Assembly (NCBI GenBank): GCA_000004695.1
Contig: CM000152.2
Span: 4,576,001 to 4,640,000, forward strand
From: Dictyostelium discoideum
Taxonomy: Eukaryota
Direction of reading: 5' to 3'
Length of the DNA stretch: 64,000 nt
Part shown: positions 1 to 3,211 of the stretch, one piece after another
How the letters are laid out: each line of letters begins with the position of its first letter
Numbering within the stretch: the first letter of the stretch is position 1
Position numbers and translations under genes: made by a program
Notes under the pieces: model-generated
What the model was told of the DNA's origin: nothing
The model's input: the letters and a program-made list of their open reading frames with translations, nothing else
The model's database searches: none

Positions 1-1120
1 TCCCGTTAATCATTTCAATTCATTAACAAAGACTCGTATACCAATGAGCAACATCAAAAAGATTGTCCGTGATAATATACTAGATGCTCAAATCAATGCT
101 CAAAAGTATTACAACCGAGGTCGTGGTGATGTTATCTTCGTAGTCGGAGAAAAGGTGATGGTTAAAAGAAAATTCTTCCAAACTAATCTTTCAAAAGATC
201 TAATCTCTCACAAACTTGAATCCAAGAATTGTGGACCATTCATAATCACTGCCGTTCATGGTAATAATGTAACACTCGATTTAGTAGGTTATCCAAAGAA
301 ACACAATGTGTTCAACAAAGATCAAATCGTAAAACTATACGAGGACAGTGAGTGGTTAAGAGAAGAGATATCGATGCCGGAACCTGAGGAGATGGACGAA
401 GCAAGTTACGAAGTTGAAAGTATTCTCAATCACGATAAAGTCAAAAAGATGTACCTAGTGAAGTTCAAAGGTTACCCAGAACCTGAATGGATCAAAGAAG
501 TCGATACAGACTGTGAAGAGTTAGTCAGAGAGTATTGGAATAACGTGCAGAAGAAACAATTGAACTCAAGAAGAGAAAGAGAGAATGTAACTACAGAAGC
601 CGTTGAGCCAATTGTGTCACCTCCACTCTCCCAAGAAGTTCAAAGTTCTCAAACATTGCAACCAATTACTCCAAGACAACAAAACTCCATCTCAAATCAA
701 AGAAACCAATCAAAGAAAAGAAAATCAAGAAATCAAAATACTTCAAGTGATGATGATGAACTTGATCTTAGTTTACAAATTAAAACAACTAGATCAGGAA
801 GAAAAGTTACACCCAAGAGTTTATAGTCCACCTCTGAGCCATAGCTAGCCTAAAGAAGGAAGGGGAAGGTGTTAGAGACTCAAAACTAAATTAATTTAAA
901 GTTAGTATGAGCTCAACAACGTAACAAATTCGCGCATCTCCATGTAAAAATATTTCATTTAATTTTTATTTTTATTTTTTAATTTTTTAATTTTTTATTT
1001 TTTCAGTCAAAAAATAAAAAATTAAATTAAAAAAAATTAAATTAAATTAAAATTTAAAAAAATAATAAAAATTCTGATTTTTCGGTTTAGTTGGAATAAC
1101 GCCCTTACTTTTAATTATCT
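1..1120 (+). mobile_element. 3' portion of an LTR retrotransposon (pol 3' end plus presumptive 3' UTR/LTR; LTR boundary not determinable)
   Basis: Chromodomain-integrase ORF ends at 826. It is followed by about 300 bp of non-coding sequence with mixed composition before the AT-rich minisatellite begins. No second LTR copy lies in the window for comparison. Confidence 0.35.
2..826 (+). CDS. Partial (window-truncated) pol ORF of a Ty3/gypsy-type LTR retrotransposon: integrase C-terminal module + chromodomain (Skipper/DGLT-like)
   Basis: Frame is open from nt 2 (no stop before the ATG at 44). 'GPFIITAVHGNNVTLDLVGYPKKHNVFNKDQIV' resembles the C-terminal GPY/F module of retroviral-type integrases. 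It is followed by a clear chromodomain ('YEVESILNHDKVKKMYLVKFKGYPEPEWIKEVD..ELVREYW') and a basic S/Q-rich tail. Stop at 824-826. Confidence 0.7.
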   Translation, partial: PVNHFNSLTKTRIPMSNIKKIVRDNILDAQINAQKYYNRGRGDVIFVVGEKVMVKRKFFQTNLSKDLISHKLESKNCGPFIITAVHGNNVTLDLVGYPKKHNVFNKDQIVKLYEDSEWLREEISMPEPEEMDEASYEVESILNHDKVKKMYLVKFKGYPEPEWIKEVDTDCEELVREYWNNVQKKQLNSRRERENVTTEAVEPIVSPPLSQEVQSSQTLQPITPRQQNSISNQRNQSKKRKSRNQNTSSDDDELDLSLQIKTTRSGRKVTPKSL

Positions 1121-1326
1121 CTTTTATGTATGTTTACTTTTATGATATTAGTCTTTCACTCTTTCTATCCTTCATATTAAAAAACATTACTTTAAAGATT
1201 GGACTGTTTGATAAAAGATTGAACAAATGTGACAATGGATTGAAGATTAGTGTGAGTGACTTTTACAGACAGAATCAACAGAAACATTGGCAGATAAAAT
1301 CACACAGCAAAGAAAAATGCACCTTT

Positions 1327-2045
1327 AAAGCAAATTTAAAGAAAAGTTGATTTAAATTGGATTTAAATTGAATTTAAAGCCGCGTTTAAAAAATTCATTT
1401 TTAAGGTAATTTTTAAGGTAATTTTTAAGATATTTAAAAATGCCTTTAAAATTTGCTTTAAAATAATTTTTTAAGCAATTTTAAAGGTGATTTTAAAGGT
1501 GATTTTAAAGGTGATTTTTAAGGTAATTTTTAAGATAATTTTTAAGATATTTAAAAATACCTTTAAAATTTATTTTAAATTAATTTTAAATAGGATTTAA
1601 AGTAGATTTAAAGTAGATTTAAAGTGAATTTAAATTTCCTTTAAACATAAATTTAAGGTTTTTAATAAAAAAGATCTAATTTTAGAACAAAAAAATGGGG
1701 ATAAAATATTCTATCATTTTTAAATTTTCATCAAAGCAATCAAATGGTGTAATGGTTGATGAGACTACCCTTTAATAGAGGGTCGGGGGATCGAATCCCT
1801 TTTGGTAATTTTTGAAAAATTAAAAAAAAAAATTTTAAAAAATTTATCCGTTAAATAACGGCTTCGAACTCAGGACCTCGCTTTTAAAGCGATTAAAAAG
1901 GTAATTTTAAAGGTAATTTTAAAGGTAATTTTTAAGGTGATTTTAAAGTAACCTTAAAAATTACCTTTAAAATTACCTTTAAAATTGCTTTAATTCAGGA
2001 CTTTAAAGCAAATTTAAATTTAATTTAAAGCGAATTTAAAGGTGG
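1327..2045. repeat. Minisatellite-like array of 11-13 bp TTTAAA-core units (ggtaatttttaa / ggtgattttaaa / tagatttaaag), flanked by direct 'aaagcaaatttaaa' repeats, with a local palindrome centred near 1955
   Basis: Direct reading. Triplicated units occur at 1400-1440, 1485-1535, 1595-1625 and 1895-1945. An inverted arrangement sits at 1921-1985 (…ggtgattttaaagtaaccttaaaaattacc…). 'aaagcaaatttaaa' appears at 1327-1340 and 2004-2017. Confidence 0.6.
1741..1815 (+). other. Degenerate tRNA-like / B-box-like remnant (GGGGGATCGAATCCC). A second, oppositely oriented B-box-like motif lies at 1861-1876 (minus: CCTGAGTTCGAAGCC)
   Basis: T-loop-like 'ATCGAATCC' and an anticodon-arm-like hairpin 'accct ttaatag agggt' are present. 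No full cloverleaf with a 7-bp acceptor stem could be folded by eye. Confidence 0.2.
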
Positions 2046-2730
2046 TTTTTTCTTCGCTGTGATGACATAAAGAAACTGGAGAACGTTAATGCCAACATGT
2101 TATTCAAAGGGGACAGGTGGGCTATCTCAAAAGAAAGGAGCAGAAGAGACTATGAAATTGGAGGCCTGGAACTCTGGAATAGGGACTTAGCATGGAGATA
2201 TCTACTCAAGGCACTTCCAAAACACCATGGGGAGAATTGCCACTCATGTAAAGAAGAAGAATCGTCTATGCACATCTTCTTCGAATGCAAATCAATAAAA
2301 CAGAATATCGACTCAATCTATCAAAAGGTCTGTAAAGACTCCAACAACACTTACCACGGTCCATGGAGCGAAAAAGTTCTCGGAAAACTACTCACACCAT
2401 TCTCATCAAATCTGATAGGAGCCATTATGGAATCGATATGGTACAGAAGAAATCAAATAAAATTCAACGATAACACTACAATAATAACAGAGAACCAAAT
2501 AATTCATAAAATCAAAAAAGCGAGAGATGCCGAATGGGATAGAACAAGAAAGATAGTAGAAAAACAACTACGTCAAGAACTAAGATGCACTGATAACCGA
2601 GAGTCAATCAATCGGACCGCATCAATAAAAAGAAGACTCGAAAAATTCAGCCACAACTGGAACTCGAAACTCATGACCATAAACATCCCGGAACACTTCA
2701 TACCATACTGCTCATATAACACCAACTACT

Positions 2731-2735
<5 letters not shown>
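2040..2735 (+). CDS. Partial ORF2 (C-terminal zinc-finger-like domain) of the truncated TRE-type retrotransposon
   Basis: Same frame as listed ORF 2097..2735, open upstream to 2040. CxxC…H…C motif shared with the intact ORF2 downstream in the window. Confidence 0.55.
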
Positions 2736-2764
<29 letters not shown>

Positions 2765-2856
2765 ATAACAATAATAATAATAATAATAATAATATAATAA
2801 TATAATAATAATAATATAATAATAATAATAATAATAATAAAAATAAGAATAACAAG

Positions 2857-2897
<41 letters not shown>
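2040..2897 (+). mobile_element. 5'-truncated copy of a TRE-type (tRNA-gene-targeted) non-LTR retrotransposon: ORF2 C-terminal Cys-rich region plus an A/AAT-rich tail
   Basis: ORF frame opens at 2040 exactly where the minisatellite ends. The motif 'HGENCHSCKEE…HIFFECKSIKQ' parallels the C-terminal 'CPLCKED…HLFFSCKKTKQ' motif of the full-length element ORF2 at 31943-35647. The stop at 2735 is immediately followed by A27, (AAT)n and A41 through 2897. Confidence 0.6.
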
Positions 2898-2904
<7 letters not shown>

Positions 2905-3211
2905 AAACTCTCCTAGAACACACTCAAATTGAGTGATGTTATTAAAAAAAAAAAAAACTACTTATTTGAAAATATTTAAATATTTAAAAATAAAAGATTA
3001 ATTATAAAATATTAAGATAAATTAAAATAAAAAATATAAATTACAATAACTTGTGTACAAATACTCATTACGTTAGTCCACTTTCGTTACAGGCTAATTA
3101 AACCAATAATTATGTGCATAAAATACTTTTCAATAAGTACCAAAAAGAATCTTAATACAAAGGACCTTTTGAAAAATGTTTTTTTATTGTTTATTTTTTT
3201 AAAAATTTAAT

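Follow-up and report, generated by a model that had tools for sequence, protein, structure and literature searches.

Results

The analysed stretch of Dictyostelium discoideum DNA (64,000 nucleotides, positions 4,576,001 to 4,640,000 of contig CM000152.2; hereafter the window, with its coordinates marked w) begins with the 3' end of an LTR retrotransposon, followed by a short inverted-repeat DNA transposon that we call X and by the 3' part of a non-LTR retrotransposon. These first 3 kb are an ordinary mobile-element stack and belong to known biology. Everything upstream of w1, namely a tRNA-Arg gene, the 5' end of the non-LTR element and an X-bearing 5' LTR, was taken from GCA_054883475.1, another assembly of the locus (L005), which is identical to the window over w1–2755 and first differs from it at w2756 by a 20-nt gap. 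Paralogues of the non-LTR element at two further loci, L003 and L004, were used for comparison. The features of the window are as follows:

1–826, plus strand: 3' end of Skipper-1-type ORF2 with the integrase C-terminal extension (GPF motif, SH3_Tf2-1) and chromodomain (Pfam, paralogues)
853–869, plus strand: polypurine tract AAAGAAGGAAGGGGAAGG, abutting the TG of the 3' LTR (direct reading; boundary from the comparison of the two LTRs)
870–1267, plus strand: Skipper 3' LTR, 398 bp, with TG...CA ends (comparison with the split 5' LTR)
1268–1272, plus strand: 5-bp target-site duplication of Skipper, GACAG (partner at L005 1393–1397, directly before the 5' LTR)
1268–1302, plus strand: TRE5 ORF1, roughly codons 10–20 (...TESTETLADKI), continuing the 5' UTR and ATG upstream of the Skipper insertion
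1303–2061, no strand: element X, a 759-bp non-autonomous DNA transposon with TIRs CACAGCAAAGAAAAATGCACCTTTAAA / CACAGCGAAGAAAAAACCACCTTTAAA and no ORF (inverted repeats, second copy, relative X2)
1738–1808, plus strand: tRNA-gene-like module in X, a degenerate cloverleaf (A box, B box and T4)
1860–1874, minus strand: second B-box-like motif, GGTC-CTGAG-TTCGAAGCC, whose core GTTCGAAGC fits GTTCRANNC
1898–1991, no strand: near-perfect palindrome of GGTAATTTTAAA units in the right arm of X (arms of 47 nt in inverted repeat I4, 91% complementary)
2062–2735, plus strand: C-terminal region of TRE5-type ORF2, zinc-binding domain of the RT protein (Pfam zf-RVT, E=0.0085; paralogues P0044–P0049)
2736–2897, plus strand: A-rich/(AAT)n simple-repeat tract from the ORF2 stop to the terminal module (direct reading; length differs between assemblies)
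2898–2956, plus strand: conserved TRE5 3' terminal module TACAAATAAACTCTCCTAGAACACACTCAAATTGAGTGATGTTATT plus oligo(A), the true 3' end (it also ends the paralogues in L004, 100%, and L003, 96%)
2957–2969, plus strand: 13-bp target-site duplication of TRE5, ACTACTTATTTGA (partner at L005 365–377, directly before the TRE5 5' terminus)

A full-length Skipper-1-type chromovirus ends with the region w1–1267, and its ORF2 has the stop codon at w824–826. A chromodomain-integrase end of a Ty3/gypsy element had been noticed here before, and it is present in the ORF at w2–826, where Pfam reports SH3_Tf2-1 and Chromo (E=1e-4, with a score of 22.4 bits that is slightly under the cut-off of 25.1) and for which 43 integrase paralogues exist in D. 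discoideum, the best being 99% identical (DDB_G0294358). The chromodomain cage Y/F/Y aligns with Y24/W45/Y48 of HP1 (1KNA), and with the first and third aromatic residues kept the domain is a canonical group I chromodomain. Both Skipper ORFs are intact at the locus, ORF1 with 382 aa and ORF2 with 1376 aa including RVT_1, RNaseH and rve. The 3' LTR covers w870–1267 and not 830–1330 as once proposed, and its halves are 100% identical to the 5' LTR that is split by X (w869–1035 corresponds to Lrc 302–468 and w1034–1267 to Lrc 1228–1461). Directly after the 5' LTR a polypyrimidine run, CTTTTTTTTTTCT, stands in place of a primer-binding site. With its inserted X the element measures 7,774 bp, which leaves 7,013 bp after subtraction of X and a 2-bp duplication.

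Skipper-1 has a consensus of 6,998 bp with an LTR of 390 bp and is the family without tRNA-gene targeting (PMC5006619), and the element found here agrees with it in LTR size, a length of ~7.0 kb, two ORFs and the polypyrimidine tract. Skipper-2 and DGLT-A are described with LTRs of 208 or 265 bp, a position 8–23 bp downstream or 13–33 bp upstream of a tRNA gene and a chromodomain that is diverged or absent (PMC5006619). This identity was rejected on account of the 398-bp LTR, the canonical cage and the nearest tRNA gene, which is separated from the 5' LTR by ~1.07 kb that includes TRE5 sequence.

Once Skipper is taken out, the TRE5 sequence reads MNKLANTIMTESTETLADKI and aligns with the ORF1 start of the L003 paralogue, MKSMDTEISGAIIESMAQKI, and the upstream UTR is likewise shared. 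On the right of X the ORF2 homology begins at w2063, at most 1 nt from the X end, and runs to the stop codon at w2733–2735; as a weak 3-residue match (I-N-D) extends across the X site, a few bases left of X could also belong to ORF2. Compared with L004 and P0047, ORF2 has lost ~318 bp near w2185. One of the paralogues P0044–P0049 carries RVT_1. The database names of these paralogues are all 'hypothetical protein'.

The same piece had been described as a 5'-truncated TRE-type element with an A/AAT tail. It does belong to a TRE-family non-LTR element, but this element is internally deleted and not simply truncated, having a genuine 5' end upstream, and its real 3' end is w2956, after a 46-bp module common to three copies (window, L003, L004) and the oligo(A). 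The 13-mer ACTACTTATTTGA occurs only twice in the window and all loci retrieved, at L005 365–377 and w2957–2969. The 5' terminus AGTAAGAG... is located ~10.5 kb upstream of the 3' end, with the element starting at L005 378/379, and faces head to head, at a distance of 47–48 bp, an intact tRNA-Arg(UCU) gene (anticodon TCT in DNA; L005 259–331, minus strand, outside the window). The 5' UTR holds 4.5 tandem 199-bp units. The L003 paralogue has the same AGTAAGA start terminus, its own duplication TTCATTACAAA and the same arrangement of unit(1–91), A-run and UTR with the ORF1 ATG, while the L004 paralogue, which is 5'-truncated and again has its own duplication, faces tRNA-Ile(AAT) head to head and begins ~50 bp upstream of it.

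TRE5 elements point their 5' end at that of a tRNA gene and integrate upstream of it at a distance of 34–95 bp (~50 bp) (PMC5006619, PMC5391098), and this geometry was found for the window copy as well as for the L004 paralogue. By its position the non-LTR piece is TRE5-type and not TRE3, which was rejected because it needs a position ~100 bp downstream of a tRNA gene and the informative copies have the tRNA upstream of their 5' end on the opposite strand. TRE5-A was also rejected, as the 5' UTR/ORF1-start sequence is not repeated near the 3' end and the ORF2 stop is followed by nothing but simple repeats and the 46-bp module; lacking a duplicated B-module, the element is assigned to a non-A TRE5 subfamily.

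Element X has subterminal arrays of 11–12-bp TTTAAA-containing repeats in inverted orientation (inverted repeat I11, 12-bp arrays), and its terminal motif occurs exactly twice in the window. The TTTAAA-rich repeat itself (~w1320–2040) had correctly been recognised. Its classification as a minisatellite was rejected, since a unique core is surrounded by 12-bp arrays of either orientation and the unit (w1303–2061) is bounded by inverted termini, mobile and present in a second copy. This second copy is 98% identical, lies within 8 kb of the first inside the 5' LTR of the same Skipper and is precisely bounded by LTR sequence with a 2-bp AA duplication, being flanked by 10 A's versus 8 in the intact LTR. 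A 2,016-bp relative, X2, with the same ends and a TA duplication was found in L003 (another strain, another contig), inserted into TRE5 ORF2 at KAL|PK, where the TRE5 copies of the window and of L004 are uninterrupted. The 3' LTR, which is intact, and these ORF2 copies without interruption serve as empty sites for the family. The window X is flanked by CA and AT, hence has no duplication, and sits at a deletion junction, so that among the three X-family insertions seen (X twice, X2 once) the 2-bp duplication is AA in one and TA in another. With TIRs, target-site duplication and independent sites for which empty sites exist, the family has the properties of a non-autonomous, MITE-like DNA transposon. 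Nine of the 14 positions at which the two X copies differ fall within a 158-bp core (p=4.6e-4), and such differences despite identical LTRs argue for a different donor copy. The palindrome in X folds as DNA with -36.6 kcal/mol (z = -10.9) and gives sub-threshold Rfam matches to hairpin miRNA families, e.g. mir-548.

Two oppositely oriented B-box-like motifs, reported to start at 1786 and 1861, are indeed present within X and start at w1785 (GGGGGATCGAATCCC, w1785–1799, plus strand) and w1860 (CCTGAGTTCGAAGCC, w1860–1874, minus strand). With at most one mismatch GGTTCGAANCC occurs four times in 64 kb versus 0.62 expected, which is more than chance, and two of the four are located here. As criterion for an internal Pol III promoter we used an A box TRRYNNARYNG at +8, a B box 30–60 bp downstream and a T-run terminator. 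The module at w1738–1808 agrees with it at the level of sequence and is a candidate for such a promoter, having the A box TGGTGTAATGG (w1745–1755, fitting TRRYNNARYNG), the B box GGATCGAATCC (w1788–1798) and T4 at w1800–1803. No fitting A box or T-stem partner was found for the motif at w1860–1874. A regular expression of A box, 19–49 nt and GWTCRANNC retrieved 7 real tRNA genes, the X copies and one other site in 182 kb, and the T-arm half of the module resembles tRNA-Lys and tRNA-Arg. Rfam gave no tRNA match (RF00005) at E<=10 over w1200–2200 and ARAGORN none at default or -ps settings over the module; w1738–1808 is called by ARAGORN only at the 80% threshold, which yields 36 spurious calls per 64 kb. 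The module recurs in the X copy that splits the Skipper 5' LTR and is not the site-unique sequence of a resident tRNA locus, and neither X copy shows a TRE insertion at the predicted -48 site. X carries both B-box-like motifs as internal cargo, and the A-box/B-box/T4 module has probably been captured from or is descended from a tRNA gene. The motifs diverge faster than the X ends and have no demonstrable role in building the pile-up.

Discussion

With a probability of roughly 0.87 the whole region is an old TRE5-family non-LTR retrotransposon that was afterwards struck by a Skipper-1-type element and X. In the history that we propose a TRE5 of a non-A subfamily integrated by tRNA-Arg, generating the 13-bp target-site duplication. 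Integration of TRE5-A is directed by Pol III factors, with TFIIIC on the A and B boxes and the ORF1 protein contacting TFIIIB, and by analogy the same mechanism may hold for the TRE5 subfamily found here; such Pol III-directed targeting would explain the presence of the non-LTR element at the locus. X then came to occupy exactly the place of ~3.7 kb of missing TRE5, from ORF1 codon ~20 to the last ~230 ORF2 codons, and this loss might go back to two X insertions that recombined with each other or to an adjacent deletion associated with X, as suggested only by the non-matching flanks. Subsequently the full-length Skipper-1-type chromovirus entered TRE5 ORF1, with identical LTRs and the GACAG duplication, before another X copy entered its 5' LTR with a 2-bp duplication. 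Skipper and X came later than the TRE5 into which they inserted, and the non-autonomous X evidently moved later than the arrival of Skipper. The pile-up is seeded by a tRNA gene, but this is a live tRNA-Arg elsewhere and not a dead one.

The least probable explanation is the one given in the earlier note, in which a decayed resident tRNA gene, left as the two B-box motifs, had drawn both the LTR and the non-LTR element via Pol III factors. The motifs are real and above the chance number (4 versus 0.62 expected), one of them has a stringent A box at tRNA-like spacing and a T4, and TRE elements do target tRNA genes (PMC5006619). However, the motifs are located inside the TIR-bounded X, of which a 98% identical copy sits in the Skipper 5' LTR, and as they travel with mobile X they cannot be what remains of a tRNA gene resident at this site. 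Both the 13-bp duplication and the 5' terminus of TRE5 point to the intact tRNA-Arg(UCU) as its target, ~10.5 kb upstream of the 3' end. This duplication and the second X copy already refute the explanation. In addition, the distance from the motifs to the non-LTR junction, ~265 bp (plus strand) or ~141 bp (minus strand, from the notional +1), is neither ~48 nor ~100 bp. Targeting by Pol III factors would hold for the non-LTR element; the LTR element is Skipper-1-type and has its own duplication within TRE5 ORF1. The earlier note had itself stated that its tRNA hotspot would become unnecessary if no tRNA model matched and the pol fragment belonged to a family that does not target tRNA genes; the first is what Rfam (w1200–2200, E<=10) and ARAGORN at default settings returned, and the second follows from the 398-bp LTR, the ~7,013 bp length and the canonical cage.

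Only slightly more probable is that w2062–2956 is a separate 5'-truncated TRE5, drawn to X because its A/B-box module mimics a tRNA gene, and that the 5' part of TRE5 farther upstream is another element. This would fit the ORF2 homology beginning within 1 nt of the X end, but the 13-bp duplication pairs w2957 with the 5' terminus by tRNA-Arg and not with X-end sequence, no duplication of X-terminal sequence was found after w2956, and the 5' and 3' parts share orientation and family as in the L003 paralogue. The plus-strand module moreover predicts a TRE5 near w1690 on the opposite strand, and the minus-strand B box is without an A box and ~141 bp off. We also consider it very unlikely that X is a satellite-like block copied between two sites by gene conversion or segmental duplication, even if the copies are <8 kb apart and the interior consists largely of tandem 12-bp repeats. 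Against this speak the inverted termini, which are exactly alike at the ends of both copies, the 2 bp of LTR sequence duplicated around one copy, for which the intact 3' LTR provides the empty site, the 14 differences between the copies although the LTRs that host one of them are identical, and X2, which has like termini but another interior and is flanked by a TA duplication on a different contig, its site being uninterrupted elsewhere.

The sequence of events starting from TRE5 therefore remains our preferred reading. A further-reaching proposal, that the X family represents uncharacterised TIR transposons with a TA-type 2-bp duplication, recently active and equipped with a portable tRNA-gene-like Pol III promoter module, appears improbable. 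If TFIIIC and TFIIIB did assemble on the module, each copy of X would provide an ectopic site for Pol III and could give small transcripts, and X copies could be decoy landing pads for TRE5, TRE3, DGLT-A and Skipper-2. A/B-box loci in the rDNA palindrome do act as landing pads for TRE5-A (PMC5391098). Stacks of TRE5, Skipper and a DNA transposon adjoining tRNA genes are textbook for the D. discoideum genome, where 61% of the tRNA genes carry a TRE (PMC5006619), and the importance of the locus is accordingly small. An apparently intact Skipper-1 with identical LTRs on a chromosome arm and the movement of X after its arrival might be of interest to Dictyostelium transposon specialists, and as a correction for this organism B-box-like motifs can be transposon cargo and are not to be taken as relics of tRNA genes.

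Comparison with known elements

Like Skipper-1, the LTR element here has ~7,013 bp without X, a 398-bp LTR, a gag-like ORF1 and an ORF2 of the order PR-RT-RNH-IN-chromodomain, but it has inserted into a TRE5 that neighbours a tRNA gene on a chromosome arm, instead of lying in a centromeric cluster, and has a DNA transposon within its 5' LTR. Its chromodomain differs from HP1 in the middle cage residue, F instead of W.

The non-LTR element resembles TRE5 (TRE5-A/B/C; PMC5006619, PMC5391098) in lying head to head with a tRNA gene, 47–48 bp upstream of it, in the 13-bp target duplication, the two ORFs, the zinc-binding domain at the end of ORF2 and the oligo(A) end, and its paralogues are also found ~50 bp upstream of tRNA genes. 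In contrast to TRE5-A it has neither the duplicated B-module nor a long C-module after ORF2, only the 46-bp terminal module, and this copy is distinguished from TRE5 by the 4.5x tandem 199-bp 5' unit, the ~3.7-kb internal deletion filled by X and the second deletion of ~318 bp.

X, compared by description, resembles the thug/DDT-S elements and MITE/foldback-type elements in being short, with TIRs, subterminal short-repeat arrays, no ORF and a hairpin-forming interior, and in inserting into other transposons, and it resembles Tc1/mariner-derived MITEs in its 2-bp (TA/AA) duplication. The source for thug-S/-T and DDT-S is reportedly Gloeckner et al. 2001. These small D. discoideum DNA transposons are named in PMC5633606, according to which nothing is known about the activity of DNA transposons in this species. 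X has no intron-bearing gene as reported for thug-S (PMC4894637), and X2 differs from X in being without the A/B-box tRNA-gene-like module. This module, with a stringent A box 33 bp before the B box, a T-run and no cloverleaf, is similar to the non-tRNA A/B-box loci of the rDNA palindrome (PMC5391098), and the X motifs show the extended GGTC-N5-TTCGA form of the ex-B boxes downstream of tRNA genes (L005 160–230, w37393–37403). It differs from both in the A54 of its plus-strand B box (GATCGAATC), which is shared only with some tRNAs, e.g. the neighbouring tRNA-Arg.

Results and Discussion

The non-LTR element and its tRNA gene

Two loci of the GCA_054883475.1 chromosome record (L001 and L005) span the start of the window and 7.9 kb upstream of it. 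Window and L005 are completely identical over w1–2755 (w, position in the window), the first difference being a length change of an A-tract that shifts the coordinates by 20 nt (BLAST). Because of this identity L005 was used for all sequence upstream of w1, and the features described there come from this other assembly rather than from the window sequence.

The reading frame at w2062–2735 is the zinc-binding C-terminus of a non-LTR ORF2, and its paralogues, its 3' end and its target-site duplication with the matching 5' end show it to be TRE5-type and one part of a much larger insertion:

L005 259–331, strand opposite TRE5: intact tRNA-Arg(UCU) gene
TRE5, segment 1: 4.5 tandem 199-bp units
TRE5, segment 2: A-run
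TRE5, segment 3: 5' UTR and ORF1 start MNKLANTIMTESTETLADKI, aligning with the copy in L003
TRE5, segments 4–5: Skipper insertion, then 30 further ORF1 bases
TRE5, segments 6–7: X (the 759-bp unit described below), then the last ~230 codons of ORF2
w2898–2956: TRE5 3' end, formed by a 46-bp module with oligo(A) that follows the A/AAT tract
w2957–2969: target-site duplication ACTACTTATTTGA directly beyond the TRE5 3' end

In a search of the window and all comparison loci ACTACTTATTTGA was found elsewhere only at L005 365–377, where it immediately precedes the 5' terminus AGTAAGAG..., a terminus common to the L003 copy, whose own duplication is TTCATTACAAA. The 46-bp module also ends the copies in L004 (100%) and L003 (96%). 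[quoted passage not shown] The L004 paralogue (98% identity to the window copy, 5'-truncated, with its own duplication) starts in head-to-head orientation ~50 bp upstream of tRNA-Ile(AAT). Beside the homologous elements in L002 and L003, too, tRNA genes of the opposite strand are found on the 5' side. A TRE3 identity is excluded by position, and TRE5-A by the lack of a second 5' UTR/ORF1-start segment behind ORF2, with TRE5-B and TRE5-C as the candidates. Look-ups of gene IDs and cluster names returned 'hypothetical protein' alone. The tRNA gene that seeded the locus, assumed by the earlier note to have been degraded in place, is thus intact and lies outside the window.

Two other readings of the TRE5 segments were discarded. 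A continuation of ORF2 in the 35 bp left of X amounted to a 3-residue match, and this stretch is the TRE5 ORF1 start. The A-run at L005 1247–1284 could have ended another element further upstream, but the L003 copy keeps the order of unit, A-run and UTR, and the 13-bp duplication likewise argues against it. At L005 379–1264 the 199-bp unit is present 4.5 times with 99% identity; the L003 paralogue contains just 91 bp of one unit. Such an amplified 5' unit may be comparable to the A-module of TRE5-A. Downstream of tRNA-Arg(UCU), at L005 150–240, we observed a pair of ex-B-box-like sequences, GGTCATGGGTTCGAT and GGTCATGGGTTCTAAC as reverse complements, with a T29 run between them; they agree with what has been described as external B boxes of tRNA genes in D. 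discoideum.

The LTR element

The ORF at w2–826 has Pfam matches to SH3_Tf2-1 and Chromo, 99% identity to DDB_G0294358 and 43 D. discoideum paralogues. L005 shows the complete ORF2 of which it is the terminus, 1376 aa long and containing RT, RNase H and integrase domains; a 382-aa ORF1 lies upstream of it. Its 3' end is composed as follows:

w853–869: polypurine tract, abutting the LTR
w870–1267: 3' LTR, 398 bp with TG...CA ends, from comparison of both element ends

The 3' LTR shows 100% identity to both halves of the 5' LTR, which is followed by a polypyrimidine run, and GACAG on both flanks marks the target-site duplication. Once the X insertion in the 5' LTR is subtracted the element measures ~7,013 bp. 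At the positions of the aromatic cage (Y24, W45 and Y48 of Drosophila HP1, 1KNA) its chromodomain carries Y, F and Y. Skipper-1 has been described as measuring 6,998 bp, with an LTR of 390 bp, a canonical cage and no preference for tRNA genes; Skipper-2 (6,178 bp, LTR 208 bp) has lost cage residues one and three and lies 8–23 bp downstream of tRNA genes, and DGLT-A lacks a chromodomain (PMC5006619). Position, LTR length and chromodomain exclude Skipper-2 and DGLT-A, and the LTR element that ends in w1–1267 is Skipper-1-type, of the family without tRNA targeting, contrary to what had been proposed for it.

The Skipper-1 copy (L005 1398–9171, its 3' end being w1–1267) has both ORFs uninterrupted (382 and 1376 aa) and lies in a chromosome arm despite this, not in a centromeric cluster. 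In AX4 only two Skipper copies have intact ORFs (PMC5006619).

Element X and its relatives

The TTTAAA block consists of 11–12-bp repeat units in both orientations and belongs to a 759-bp unit with terminal inverted repeats, called X:

w1303: left terminus of X, CACAGCAAAGAAAAATGCACCTTTAAA (inverted-repeat analysis)
w2061: end of the right terminus of X, reverse complement CACAGCGAAGAAAAAACCACCTTTAAA (inverted-repeat analysis)

A second copy, with 98% identity over 759 bp, was found at L005 1564–2322 within the 5' LTR of the Skipper-1 element above, with LTR sequence abutting base for base. It is surrounded by 7 A and 3 A, compared with 8 A in the intact 3' LTR, and therefore has a 2-bp duplication. 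It postdates the Skipper integration, because the LTRs are otherwise identical and reverse transcription cannot pass an insertion to one LTR alone. The 14 differences from the copy at w1303–2061 argue for a different donor of the LTR copy. A larger relative, X2 (2,016 bp, L003 11105–13120, another strain), shares the X termini and subterminal TTTAAA repeats around an unrelated interior that is AT-rich, ORF-less and without B-box motifs; it lies within a TRE5 ORF2, which it splits at ...KAL|PK..., and its flanking TA duplication is clean. By these features X is a non-autonomous, MITE/foldback-like DNA transposon. It may correspond to a catalogued small D. discoideum DNA transposon, thug or DDT-S, for which a literature search gave mentions without sequence for comparison. 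No X copies were present in two centromere-type Skipper clusters (L006 and L007).

The insertion point of X2 (~w2224) is ~40 bp from the ~318-bp deletion of the window copy (near w2185). X also contains a near-perfect palindrome of 94 nt (w1898–1991, -36.6 kcal/mol, z = -10.9) with sub-threshold Rfam matches to hairpin miRNA families, e.g. mir-548. As thug-S-derived small RNAs have been reported in D. discoideum (PMC4894637), X hairpins could likewise enter the small-RNA machinery.

B-box-like motifs inside X

Both B-box-like motifs, which the earlier note had read as remnants of a tRNA gene, lie within X and are carried by both X copies, so that they are mobile cargo. They are not chance matches: the 64 kb contain 4 matches to GGTTCGAANCC with up to 1 mismatch (0.62 expected), and across 118 kb from further D. 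discoideum loci these matches are limited to real tRNA genes and their ex-B boxes, X copies and a small array at L006 1–150.

w1745–1755: A box TGGTGTAATGG, fitting TRRYNNARYNG

This pattern is the stringent A-box pattern of D. discoideum (PMC5391098). On the plus strand the B box follows 33 bp beyond the A box, with TTTT at w1800–1803, and the motif is part of a tRNA-gene-like promoter module. In 182 kb the combined A/B-box pattern was matched only by 7 real tRNA genes, by the X copies and at a single further site. The minus-strand motif has a perfect GTTCRANNC core; neither an A box nor a T-stem partner was found for it. The motifs form no cloverleaf: Rfam had no tRNA match at E<=10, ARAGORN called nothing at normal settings, and the one call it made at an 80% threshold is at noise level, since the window then gives 36 spurious ones. 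None of eight tRNA genes compared qualified as donor of the two motifs, whose T-arm halves alone resemble tRNA-Lys, tRNA-Arg and tRNA-Pro. Nine of the 14 differences between the X copies fall into the 158-bp core (Fisher p=4.6e-4), so that constraint on the core is, if anything, weaker than on the ends of the transposon; in a genome biased towards AT, the higher G+C of the core may add to this divergence.

Further B-box-like sequence outside tRNA genes was observed at L006 1–150, where three tandem ~57-bp units, each with a GGTCAC(G/A)GGTTCGATTC-type motif, border a Skipper-rich, centromere-type locus; ARAGORN made no tRNA call there. In the window itself two identical, inverted tRNA-Leu(UAA) genes lie 7 kb apart (w30291–30373, plus strand; w37433–37515, minus strand), each followed ~30–45 bp downstream by a GTTCRANNC motif (w30407–30415 and w37394–37402) that is likely an ex-B box.

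Assembly of the locus

The integration of TRE5 beside a live tRNA gene came first. Skipper-1 later entered TRE5 ORF1 (duplication GACAG), the first X event preceding or following it, and a further X copy entered the Skipper 5' LTR. Where X now sits ~3.7 kb of TRE5 are missing and the flanking dinucleotides, CA and AT, do not match, as would be expected if the loss arose by recombination between two inserted copies of X or by an adjacent deletion associated with X. A separate deletion of ~318 bp affects the ORF2 remnant near w2185. The A/B-box module of X could instead have drawn in the ORF2 fragment as a target of its own, but the duplication, the orientation common to the TRE5 5' part and the ORF2 fragment, and the distances all speak against this attractor. 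Pol III targeting holds as a kernel, namely TRE5 at a tRNA gene, and the causal story built on it by the earlier note does not.

Surroundings

The neighbouring gene lies at the following position:

w3212–4831, minus strand: ORF of 539 aa that includes a long poly-Asn stretch as well as a (GGN)n run

A Pfam search of this protein gave no match. It has a single exact occurrence in the public protein collection, encoded on the 6.43-Mb chromosome of GCA_054883475.1 at ~4.65 Mb; the locus is a chromosome arm. Elsewhere in the window a direct segmental duplication of ~5 kb (w10915–15754 and w16739–21860, 90–94% identity, spacing ~5.8–6.1 kb) was seen, as well as long internal repeats at w62215–63859 (self-matches of 75–84% over 0.3–1.2 kb, offsets in multiples of ~66 bp), probably a repeat-rich coding region.

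Conclusion

The tRNA-gene-like promoter module and the apparently recent movement of X are leads of mild interest rather than findings, and the splitting of the 5' LTR by X may affect the Skipper promoter. The kinds of element had been well identified beforehand, with the TRE family correctly named and TRE5, not TRE3, as its member. All components are of kinds already catalogued in D. discoideum, in which tRNA genes typically carry nested insertions.
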